Assembly: GCA_039024555.1 (NCBI GenBank)
Contig: JBCCQQ010000002.1
Span: 128,001 to 192,000 of the forward strand
Length of the DNA: 64,000 nucleotides
DNA from: Cyanobacteria bacterium P01_D01_bin.156
GTDB taxonomy: Bacteria; Cyanobacteriota; Cyanobacteriia; Phormidesmidales; Phormidesmidaceae
Direction of reading: 5' to 3'
Within the stretch, counting starts at the first letter, position 1. Each line of letters opens with the position of its first letter. This document shows, in pieces, positions 27,501-29,983 of the stretch. Below the pieces are notes generated by a model. The model was not told where the DNA came from. It saw only the letters and a list, made by a program, of their open reading frames with translations, and did no database searches. A program made the position numbers and the translations under genes.

Positions 27501-28184
27501 ATGTCACCCAGATCTTCAATGACTGATACAACTGCATTCGTGGCAGGATGTGCCACGACAGGTGTTGCTGTCTTAGTGTTGTTGCTAGCAAGAGTTGGGT
27601 TTCAAACCTCTACACCAACAGTAGAGTCAAGTGCTCCACCGCCAGAAACAGTCGTTCCGGTTCCTCAATCTCCCGTACAGTCCCTGGATGATGGCCTTAG
27701 TGAAGACATTAAGCAAGAATTAGACCGCCAGCGAGATCTAACAGCTAAGCTAGAAAATCAGCTAGTACAGCAGGAAATGCTGGCTCGAAACCTGGAAAAT
27801 CAGCTTAAACAGCAACAGGAAGAGACTCGGGCTGTACTTTCACAGCTGAGGGAATATCAGCGTTCAGTAGACACATTATCGTTGCAAAATGGTCAACTGG
27901 CGGCGGCTCAATCGAATCAGACGCAGCAATCTTCTAATATCCAAACCATCCTGCTTTGGATGGGTGGAGGTTTGCTATTGGTAATGGTTGTAGGAGGAGG
28001 GATTATCCTTCTCTGTTTGGTATTTGTTTCTGGGCGACGGCGTGAAGAGCGTTCTGTTCCAGTGGTATATCCATTTCAGATGCCCGTTCCCCCTAGTGGG
28101 TATCGATACTATGAGCAAGAATTTTTACCGCCACCCAATATGCGACCTAAACGAGCCAACGCCACTTATTACGATGTGGAATAG
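27501..28184 (+). CDS. PatN-like membrane protein (heterocyst differentiation-related family)
   Basis: N-terminal TM (AFVAGCATTGVAVLVLL), Pro-rich segment, Q-rich coiled coil, Gly-rich TM, tail RSVPVVYP..EFLPP..YD; matches recalled Nostoc PatN architecture. Confidence 0.6.
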   Translation: MSPRSSMTDTTAFVAGCATTGVAVLVLLLARVGFQTSTPTVESSAPPPETVVPVPQSPVQSLDDGLSEDIKQELDRQRDLTAKLENQLVQQEMLARNLENQLKQQQEETRAVLSQLREYQRSVDTLSLQNGQLAAAQSNQTQQSSNIQTILLWMGGGLLLVMVVGGGIILLCLVFVSGRRREERSVPVVYPFQMPVPPSGYRYYEQEFLPPPNMRPKRANATYYDVE

Positions 28185-28426
28185 GGTGTACACAATCCGA
28201 TCTTGATGACGGACAGTTCAGAGAGTATGAATGCTTATGAGAGGTAAGCGTTCAGCATTAGTGCTCAGAGAATTCTCTTTACGTCAAACCCATAGAATAG
28301 AAGCCACAAAATCAGCAATCACCCTGTTGGCTGCCAAATAAGTAAATGTAAGGATGATCACCATAAGGAAGCAGCTAAAACACTCGCTTCTGCCATTGTT
28401 GTTTCTAGTTAAAAGGACTTATGGTT

Positions 28427-28585
28427 ATGTCCAAGCGCAATCAGACATCTCAAAAAGTTTTATGGCAACCTATTTCTGGTAAGCAATCAGAAGTTGTAAG
28501 GGGTGGCTTCGGATTTAGTTCTGGAACTTCACCTTCAGGCAACTCTTGGTGTGCACAGACGAAGAACATCATATTTTTACGTTAG
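28427..28585 (+). CDS. Double-glycine leader peptide precursor 1 (52 aa)
   Basis: MSKRNQTSQKVLWQPISGKQSEVVRGG|FGFSSGTSPSGNSWCAQTKNIIFLR*; AAAAGGA upstream; in-frame ATG also at 28421; paralog of next two ORFs. Confidence 0.85.
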   Translation: MSKRNQTSQKVLWQPISGKQSEVVRGGFGFSSGTSPSGNSWCAQTKNIIFLR

Positions 28586-28669
28586 GCACAAACATCTTTT
28601 CAGTAGAGGTACGCCACATCCAGTGCAGTAGCCTTTTAATTTCCAAGATAAGGTAAAAAAGTTTTGGAA

Positions 28670-28712
28670 AGTCAAGCTAGGATTCCAGCGATACAGGGAT
28701 CCTAGTTTGACT
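28670..28712 (+). terminator. Hairpin downstream of precursor 1
   Basis: AGTCAAGCTAGGATTCC-9 nt-GGGATCCTAGTTTGACT (with G-U pairs). Confidence 0.6.
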
Positions 28713-29031
28713 ATTAGTGAATAACAGTTAACCCTATCTCACCTATGTAGGCTCAAAGGTAACACCCAAATTCGACCTAGGAATAAAAATGAGACAGTTA
28801 ACGACATGGCTGGATTACGGAAAATACAGAGACTGATTAGGAGAAATTATCAAGCGTTTATGGTCGCTCAGGTCTCTTTACCTTAGACACATAAAACACC
28901 AGTCACACGCTCAGCACTGCTACCCTTACTCAACCGAAGTGGAAATGCCAACATAGTTGACATGGAAAAGATACGCTAAAGCGCTTAATCCCGTCACTGT
29001 TCTTTCTACTTGAAAAGGTACAAGTTCTAAC

Positions 29032-29178
29032 ATGTCTAAGCAAAACCAATCTTCTAAAGAAGCTCTCTGGAAGCCCCTTTCCAATCAACAAGCAGAAGTT
29101 GTAAATGGTGGGTTGTTTCGGAGTTATTGTAACCGCACAAAAAAATCGATGTACCGTTGGCACAACTACGGGCAGTGA
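29032..29178 (+). CDS. Double-glycine leader peptide precursor 2 (48 aa)
   Basis: MSKQNQSSKEALWKPLSNQQAEVVNGG|LFRSYCNRTKKSMYRWHNYGQ*. Confidence 0.85.
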   Translation: MSKQNQSSKEALWKPLSNQQAEVVNGGLFRSYCNRTKKSMYRWHNYGQ

Positions 29179-29222
29179 GCAGAGTGGATTCAATGTGGCA
29201 AGGTTAAAATAATTACTAAACC

Positions 29223-29264
29223 AACGCTTGAATTTCGACAGTCTCGAAACTCAAGCGTTTTTTT
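29223..29264 (+). terminator. Intrinsic terminator downstream of precursor 2
   Basis: AACGCTTGAATTTCGA-cagtc-TCGAAACTCAAGCGTT then T-run. Confidence 0.75.
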
Positions 29265-29605
29265 AATGGCTAATTTAGACGATAGTGAACTATTTATGTA
29301 GAAACGGCCTAACAAAAAGGCCAACTGTCACATGGGTAAAACATCCATTCTTTAGTCAATACTCCGCAGCAAAGCCCTTATCAATGTGTGGAATAATTAC
29401 GTTCACCACAGATAGTCAGAATTGAAAGTAGAACTGGTTGCACAACGAAATATATGGAGGTCTGTGAAGCATTCATATTTGAAGAATCCTCTTTACACAA
29501 ATCCCATAAAGCACCCGCCAAAGATTCAGTGAACACACACTGACCTTATGAAGGTATAAATGCGAACATAGTTTTGCAAGTGATGTTCACCAAGATATAC
29601 GCTCT

Positions 29606-29770
29606 ATGTTCAAACATAACCAGTCATCGAAAACAGTTCTTTGGCAGCCTCTATCTAACAAACAAGAAGAAACCTTAAAGGGTGGCGGACGCCGTCGTGG
29701 CAGGAGTTATCAGTACAACGATTGGTGTGGTCGGACAAGGAAGGTCATGATTAAAACCGGTCGTAGCTAG
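29606..29770 (+). CDS. Double-glycine leader peptide precursor 3 (54 aa)
   Basis: MFKHNQSSKTVLWQPLSNKQEETLKGG|GRRRGRSYQYNDWCGRTRKVMIKTGRS*. Confidence 0.85.
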   Translation: MFKHNQSSKTVLWQPLSNKQEETLKGGGRRRGRSYQYNDWCGRTRKVMIKTGRS

Positions 29771-29912: not shown

Positions 29913-29983
29913 AGGCGGCACCCAGATTCGAACTGGGGATAAAGGATTTGCAATCCTCTGCCTTACCACTTGGCCATGCCGCC
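29913..29983 (-). tRNA. trnC: tRNA-Cys (GCA)
   Basis: Minus strand GGCGGCATGGCCAAGTGGTAAGGCAGAGGATTGCAAATCCTTTATCCCCAGTTCGAATCTGGGTGCCGCCT; cloverleaf, GCA anticodon, no encoded CCA. Confidence 0.97.

Follow-up and report, generated by a model that had tools for sequence, protein, structure and literature searches.

Peptides with double-glycine leaders are common in cyanobacteria and, to our knowledge, EbfG1-4 are almost the only ones whose role has been tested. Genome mining tends to take any conserved Cys/Thr for a modification site; in the prochlorosin/ProcM-type lanthipeptides many dispersed precursors share one leader and have variable cores in which the spacing of Cys and Thr is free. 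For EbfG1-4 of Synechococcus elongatus PCC 7942, the accessible text describes tandem small double-glycine genes and the C39 transporter PteB (PMC4997328), divergent mature parts with a short common motif, and an extracellular role in biofilm (PMC4997328; 10.1101/2022.07.13.498973). Cyanobacterial bacteriocin clusters, in the available part of one survey, combine a short C39 transporter and HlyD with several divergent double-glycine precursors (PMC3140520), and the CTB family (NF038167) likewise comprises tandem cyanobacterial double-glycine genes. In these respects all three resemble the peptide family described below.

The window analysed here is a stretch of 64,000 nucleotides of the Cyanobacteria bacterium P01_D01_bin.156 assembly (G000:C2:128001-192000), which is 99% complete. 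The original prediction drew attention to three short stretches (NSWCAQTKNII, RSYCNRTKKSM and NDWCGRTRKVM) aligned on a single Cys, and all three were found on the plus strand, in frame after Gly-Gly leaders (Table 1). The leaders of the three peptides are 59–63% identical in pairwise comparison and the cores 19–28%. A Pfam scan of the three peptides gave no family, and precursor 2 matched the CTB model weakly (15.7 bits, cut-off 32). A public contig spanning 28200-29940 is identical throughout, although this is a single contig that may itself be the source of this DNA. A frameshift in gene 1, suggested by a brief stretch of DNA similarity with gene 2, was rejected, as this covering (and possibly source) contig has no indel.

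Table 1. Features of the peptide array (window positions; motif coordinates run from the aromatic residue through +7, with Cys as 0 and Thr as +3).
Feature	Coordinates	Strand	Details
Upstream element, gene 1	28248..28423	+	44-nt core 28274-28317; held-out HMM E 4e-9; repeat family D1
Precursor 1, 52 aa	28427..28585	+	alternative ATG 28421; leader 28427-28507 to Gly-Gly; 25-aa core; motif 28547-28573
Stem-loop after gene 1	28670..28712	+	17-bp stem; z -6.2 versus shuffles
Decayed tRNA-Cys 3'-end copy, between genes 1 and 2	28753..28787		80% over 35 nt; repeat D2
Upstream element, gene 2	28834..29027	+	44-nt core 28873-28916; held-out HMM E 5e-19; repeat family D1
Precursor 2, 48 aa	29032..29178	+	leader 29032-29112; 21-aa core; motif 29125-29151
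Stem-loop and U run after gene 2	29223..29265	+	z -3.2; missed by consensus scan
Upstream element, gene 3	29459..29593	+	44-nt core 29488-29531; held-out HMM E 8e-11; repeat family D1
Precursor 3, 54 aa	29606..29770	+	leader 29606-29686; 27-aa core; motif 29723-29749
tRNA-Cys(GCA)	29913..29983	-	peptide array on its 3' side

A leader-only HMM, seeded from the full-length profile of the three window genes and then iterated, revealed 19 paralogues at E<1e-8 on 13 contigs of the assembly, and 16 of them (10 contigs) carry [WYF]-C-x-x-T, so the motif is indeed conserved across homologues. The same leader without the motif is present in the other 3 strong matches and in 4 weak ones (E 0.013–0.13), several with an -RG end, and in one further gene among the full-length profile matches in this genome. 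Shuffled window cores contain [WYF]C..T in approximately 1% of cases each (1e-6 jointly), for a pattern picked after seeing the data; the paralogues outside the window provide the stronger test because they are out-of-sample, and there the motif occurs in 13 of 16, against 0.23 expected from shuffling those 13 cores. Judged by leader and motif, the three window genes belong to a 16-member family of otherwise dissimilar peptides with a common Cys-Thr motif.

The alignment of 28 rows, selected for carrying the motif, gave the consensus [WYF]-C-[NPGS]-[RQT]-T-[GKR]-[KR]-x-[MVLI], with the following residues at successive positions: W14/Y6/F6 (and Asn or Arg in the remaining 2 rows), C28, N14/P4/G3/S3, R15/Q7/T3, T28, G11/K10/R3, K17/R4, a variable position, and M15/V7/L3/I2/F1. 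Thus, +4 is Gly, Lys or Arg in 24 rows and +7 is hydrophobic in all 28. The shared motif of the original prediction is real and wider than described, whereas its exact consensus, [WY]-C-x-[QR]-T-[KR]-[KN], was too narrow: it fits 6 of the 16 motif genes, and across the 8.04 million residues of the six-frame translation it has 7 matches, of which 6 are family members. The Cys was correctly described as a lone one, 27 of 29 aligned cores having a single Cys. In a comparison of 20 genes, codon positions 1 and 2 of Cys and Thr showed 100% identity and position 3 showed 56% and 44%, respectively, while the flanking codons are ~25–35% identical at every position; fixed residues with varying third positions point to selection on the residues and not to recent copying. 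The distance from the cleavage site to the motif varies from 4 to 20 residues. The cores comprise 17–35 aa, are aromatic-rich and have a mean net charge of +2.8 (range 0 to +8).

Motif genes were also found in two relatives: a tandem of four in G013 and a single one in G145. When a core-only profile was run against 173 genomes of the same taxonomic family, the motif was found in G000, G013 and G145 only, a fourth match being rejected as a 25-codon frame without a leader. A class-wide sample gave weak leader-only matches in 9 of 400 genomes, and none of the seven outside the family had the motif. In a protein database search, which used a profile that included the core, 18 of 20 short matches contain C-x-x-T (P0006 and P0025 do not), and of 9 short matches from other sources 8 do; alignment A2 omitted P0006, P0025 and copies of the G000 and G013 proteins, and five long matches (P0019, P0021-P0024) were dropped as repeat artefacts. 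The exact leader pattern had a sole match over genome contigs, in the record of the cultured strain Leptothoe kymatousa TAU-MAC 1615, where four family genes lie head to head with a gene for a TPS-family protein; no match was found in viral contigs. The metagenome scan with query P0002 gave no match, and metagenome scans yielded 14 distant TPS loci (26–36% identity), none with such peptides. Longer fused forms of the peptides were absent among 7995 candidates, which is weak evidence. As far as these searches go, the range of the family is narrow.

Several other small genes were noted during the searches: (i) a small Cys-rich ORF at G000:C4:130847-131062 (minus strand) with C-x-x-T-G-R-V-V near its end, which resembles the peptide turn; (ii) double-glycine peptides of several genomes (L085, L092, L152, L154 and L155) with the common core start L-L-P-A-V-Q-A-A-R-E, which we take to recall a pilin-like helix; (iii) near-identical Gly-rich precursors with a terminal Cys (G000:C46:24439-24654 and C90:18620-19018), one adjoining HlyD and C39 transporter genes; (iv) a double-glycine precursor with another leader and a repeated core unit (G000:C31:29786-30046); and (v) DUF1838 genes (L028:817-1608 and L036:15070-15873) ~5 kb from motif genes (G000 C51 and G013 C12), possibly by chance.

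Each window gene is preceded by one upstream element (~150–195 nt) common to the paralogues, and an HMM trained without the window genes recovered all three elements. The element is likely a promoter and 5' leader; a sigma-70 scan found no site. Two other copies in the genome (G000:C14:41591-41693 and C50:2122-2213, E 7e-11 and 5e-8, respectively) have no peptide gene behind them. Of the structures downstream of the window genes, the stem-loop after gene 1 is likely a 3' end or stability element and that after gene 2 is likely a terminator, while gene 3 has no clear stem-loop behind it. In a tree of upstream-plus-leader DNA the three window genes form one clade (support 0.88), and local duplication is therefore likely.

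The gene on the far side of the array (27501-28184) encodes a predicted membrane-anchored coiled-coil protein of 227 aa with no family above cut-off, which is 73–81% identical in 13 congener loci and adjoins tRNA-Cys there. The distance between the two is 24–428 nt in these 13 of 20 congener loci, as opposed to 1.7 kb here (of the others, 2 are cut short at their ends and 5 have no flanking gene in the 1.5 kb seen), and none of the 20 loci has a peptide gene at the tRNA-Cys site. The decayed tRNA-Cys 3'-end copy within the array is likely an integration scar, and in G013 the same site is occupied by a different two-ORF insertion (L176:8529-9936). Because congener loci are devoid of the array, a tRNA scar is present and G013 carries a different insertion, we conclude from this comparison that the array is a lineage-specific 1.7-kb insertion at tRNA-Cys, and the site looks like an insertion hotspot. 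A general targeting of tRNA genes by the family was rejected, as only 1 of 16 loci lies near a tRNA.

The leaders have Gly at -2 and -1 and Leu, Ile, Val or Met at -12 in all 28 rows, and Val, Ile or Leu at -4 in 26; at -7 there is a small residue (Ala, Thr or Ser), unlike the usual double-glycine leader consensus, which has Leu at this position. The genome contains 5 C39-domain matches, and the transporters on C46, C77 and C49 (one of two) keep the Cys and His motifs, whose residues we presume to be catalytic. The C49 transporter is 74–76% identical to those of G020 and G021 and 53% identical to that of G158. In these three genomes, same-leader genes lie between a TPS (haemagglutinin-type) gene and a C39 transporter gene, with no evident enzyme, and in G021 and G020 an HlyD gene (identified by reading) follows the transporter. 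G013, which is 75% complete, has four motif genes and only a weak C39-like match. The C49 locus itself (L077:7957-18544) contains two facing C39 transporter/HlyD sets, and one transporter has Arg at the position of the His in the others. A split TPS gene adjoins these sets, and the locus yielded no peptide gene.

The genome has 24 TPS protein matches; at 4 of the 16 family loci a TPS gene is found no more than 5 kb away, where chance would give 0.48 (P 0.001). For motif loci this holds in only 2 of 10, the window array not being among them, and the neighbour of the peptide locus on C5 is an unrelated TPS-CHAT protein. The TPS gene of interest is head to head with a peptide pair on C106. Its orthologues, searched with 4 candidates scored per genome, were found in 4 of the 173 genomes (E<=1e-100), with a split copy in G145, and form one clade with support 99 (one C-terminal fragment was left out of the tree). 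In 4 of these 5 genomes (G000, G013, G145 and G158) a Cys peptide is encoded upstream, its start 325–907 nt away; that of G158 has Ala in place of Thr. In G142 the orthologue lacks the upstream peptide and a transposase remnant (a label given by reading) is there instead. The hypergeometric value of this co-occurrence, 1e-5, is overstated owing to gene linkage and the relatedness of the genomes, and the adjacency may be simple cassette inheritance.

Other TPS clades adjoin other core classes. A second class with the same leader and often an -RG end (L035, L037 and L039, i.e. G000:C33, G013:C4 and G021:C32) lies upstream of its own TPS clade (69–72% identical), and Tyr-rich and Gly/Phe/Pro-rich cores with the same leader were observed between a C39 transporter gene and a third TPS clade (L082:9358-10209 and L083:7917-9260). 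The TPS-peptide-C39 arrangement would be the ancestral-type locus of the family.

At the motif the original prediction envisaged a thioether, an aromatic-Cys crosslink or S-glycosylation, for which no enzyme came to light; its other options, a recognition site, an intermolecular disulfide and metal binding, may still apply. Among 192 ORFs of at least 100 aa flanking 19 loci, scanned against Pfam together with two window neighbours (the other window genes were read only), no RiPP enzyme recurs and no P450 is present. LanC-like cyclases (LanC/LanM/LanK) are absent from G000 and G013 in a search that was positive in 5 of 21 congeners. TIGR04085 (SPASM), DUF692/MNIO (PF05114) and YcaO (PF02624) gave 0 matches in G000 with positive controls, and no SunS-type S-glycosyltransferase exceeded the cut-off of 350 in five genomes (best in G000, 43.8 bits). 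PqqD has a single match, on C65. Of 28 radical SAM candidates, 20 matches were named: 17 exceed the cut-off of a housekeeping or unrelated model and 2 are best named below cut-off (a QueE-like protein and a B12 protein on C6). A radical SAM/SPASM protein on C55, encoded 1.3 kb from the C55 peptide pair, was rejected as a maturase, being genus-wide (19 of 21 congeners, 86–92% identity) and not found in G013. Four P450s are encoded elsewhere in the genome, and two of them, compared with G013 proteins, show 44% and 86% identity; the P450 on C65 was rejected, as it has no orthologue relation in G013. The glycosyltransferases are ordinary ones, unlinked to the peptide loci. The aromatic-Cys crosslink also sits poorly with the Phe, Asn and Arg rows described above, which would fit packing better. 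Enzymatic modification of the cores is, at the level of sequence, unsupported. The searches also showed two full NifB genes in this one genome (G000:C59:25627-27129 and C71:13956-15527).

AlphaFold models of two precursors suggest what the motif might do. For precursor 3 they predict a disordered leader and a hairpin (strands 34-41 and 46-53) with pLDDT 85–94 over residues 31-50, and for precursor 1 a hairpin in the same register (38-42 and 47-51); the two models rest on near-identical alignments and have a pTM of 0.24–0.30. In both, the motif lies at the turn, where Cys, paired to +5, closes a four-residue loop holding Thr at +3 and Gly or Lys at +4. By comparison with GB1-type hairpins, we assume that Thr at +3 and Gly, Lys or Arg at +4 fit a known turn type. 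The Thr, formerly proposed as a modification site, would thus be a turn residue. The 20-residue hairpin may be unfolded when free. In aligned cores +7 is hydrophobic in 97% and -4 and -6 in 62% each, and by strand alternation Cys, +7 and -4/-6 would lie on one face. Structural comparison added little: a PDB sequence search gave 0 matches for profiles A2 and A3 and only noise (E 0.1–3) for single cores, Foldseek had no match at E<=0.001 and VIA none at Z>=2, the hairpin being too small for these to be informative, and the best ESM Atlas match (0.86) is only a lead. The possibility that Cys is a general stand-in for Asp or Asn at such turns found no support: in long ORFs of G000 it was seen 17 times at this position against 16.2 expected, with Asp and Asn 1.3-fold enriched. 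As Cys is not enriched there, it is probably the thiol that matters, and an intermolecular disulfide or a partner contact would be its simplest use.

That 16 genes retain the motif although no maturase was recognised points to a role in fold and binding. The reading we favour, tentatively and with slightly less than even confidence, is that the peptides are unmodified hairpins that are exported by C39 transporters and work alongside a TPS protein in the matrix or on the surface. The gene anatomy is observed, and the later steps are predicted: a C39 peptidase transporter encoded elsewhere in the genome would likely cut and export the precursors, releasing probably unmodified cationic peptides with the motif as a hairpin turn. 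The Cys may stay a free thiol on the hairpin face and could then form an intermolecular disulfide or contact a partner or second hairpin, with the variable arms giving specificity. At the cell surface the peptides would probably work together with a secreted TPS-family protein, in a matrix or adhesion role as for EbfG1-4. An extension of this, which we hold distinctly unlikely, is that one TPS surface platform with 16 interchangeable C39-exported peptides generates a combinatorial surface identity without any modifying enzyme: the peptides would dock or disulfide-link as homo- or heterodimers through the constant Cys-Thr hairpin while the arms vary, and the remaining core classes (-RG ending; Tyr- or Gly/Pro-rich) would have partners in other TPS clades.

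The cationic cores fit equally well with antimicrobials, here unmodified hairpins resembling class II bacteriocins or microcins and exported in the same way, in which the conserved face would bind one target in competing bacteria while the arms diversify. The short length and aromatic richness of the cores and the 16 diverged copies also speak for this. Partial sources add a similar turn, Y-C-N-R-R-T, in a thanatin analogue (PMC11720011) and reported antibacterial activity of L. kymatousa TAU-MAC 1615 extracts (PMC8225149). We nevertheless consider this unlikely, since the i,i+7 disulfide which, in the available text, thanatin requires is absent here (PMC11720011), no candidate immunity gene recurs among the ORFs of at least 100 aa beside the loci, the core profile has no PDB sequence match, and the TPS link is left unexplained. 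Taken together, surface and antimicrobial action share the exported, unmodified hairpin, which we regard as reasonably probable. The turn does not explain the thiol-specific conservation, and this, with the invariant Cys and Thr (despite synonymous variation) and a short motif at varying distance from the leader, would suit RiPP precursors, dispersed as in prochlorosins, on which a single distant or unrecognised enzyme acts in trans (thioether, crosslink or S-glycosylation); candidates would be the B12 radical SAM protein on C6, the four P450s, of which one has the 86% identical counterpart in G013, and the glycosyltransferases. The enzyme-free cassettes of the relatives, the null results for RiPP enzymes in an almost complete genome and a radical SAM set that is mostly housekeeping or unrelated speak against it, and we rate it rather unlikely. 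We give little credence to a pheromone role in which CHASE2 kinases or cyclases in the membrane would sense the peptides, with the hairpin as receptor epitope. A CHASE2 kinase gene does lie ~3 kb from the C55 pair, and genes for a GGDEF protein and for DUF928/CHASE2/CHAT-like proteins, with the CHASE2 and DUF928 labels given by reading, adjoin the G158 and G145 cassettes; however, of the 10 motif loci in G000 just one has such a sensor in its scanned flanks, and 16 different ligands sharing one epitope would be odd for a single signal. Finally, the motif resembles the CPXCG zinc knuckle, a tight beta-hairpin turn in the accessible part of one report (PMC4999995), with the second Cys replaced by Thr in 28 of 28 rows (all chosen for the motif), and several peptides with one Cys each might jointly bind an extracellular metal as half knuckles. 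This appears very improbable, as the peptides offer a single Cys without a conserved His, a site built from two to four chains would presumably be weak, and no metal genes recur at the loci. The preferred surface reading can be tested in the cultured L. kymatousa TAU-MAC 1615, and the repeated occurrence of the TPS-peptide-C39 cassette gives a starting point for work on TPS proteins, many of which are uncharacterised.

Compared with the systems introduced above, the family differs from prochlorosins in having no LanC-like enzyme (G000 and G013) and a fixed Cys/Thr spacing. From EbfG, whose mature parts, in the available text, are of 6–7 kDa, have an amyloid hotspot and come from genes next to PteB (PMC4997328; 10.1101/2022.07.13.498973), it is set apart, by description, by its much shorter cationic, single-Cys predicted hairpins, by the tie to a TPS gene and by genes that are scattered across 10 contigs and individually preceded by an upstream element. 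The CTB model matches the leader in 6 of 15 peptides at 14–20 bits, all below its cut-off (best homologue 19.6), and the core motif lies outside the match. Thanatin shares a cationic beta-hairpin, an aromatic-Cys-Asn-Arg turn start and a Thr in the loop, but is, in the part of the source available, an insect peptide with a longer loop that needs its disulfide (PMC11720011), and the likeness is likely convergent. The genome paper of L. kymatousa TAU-MAC 1615, in its available part, reports no bacteriocin cluster in the strain (PMC8225149). A literature search of sources available in part (including PMC3140520, PMC8225149 and PMC9846622) gave no description of the motif or of the TPS-peptide-C39 cassette, although supplementary Tables S3 (PMC3140520) and S2 (PMC8225149) could list relatives. 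In contrast to the very little core conservation in the accessible part of the bacteriocin survey (PMC3140520), a nine-position motif is kept here across 16 paralogues. The family would thus belong to the known double-glycine exported peptides, outside the CTB family and RiPPs as presently delimited, with a motif and a cassette that are apparently new.
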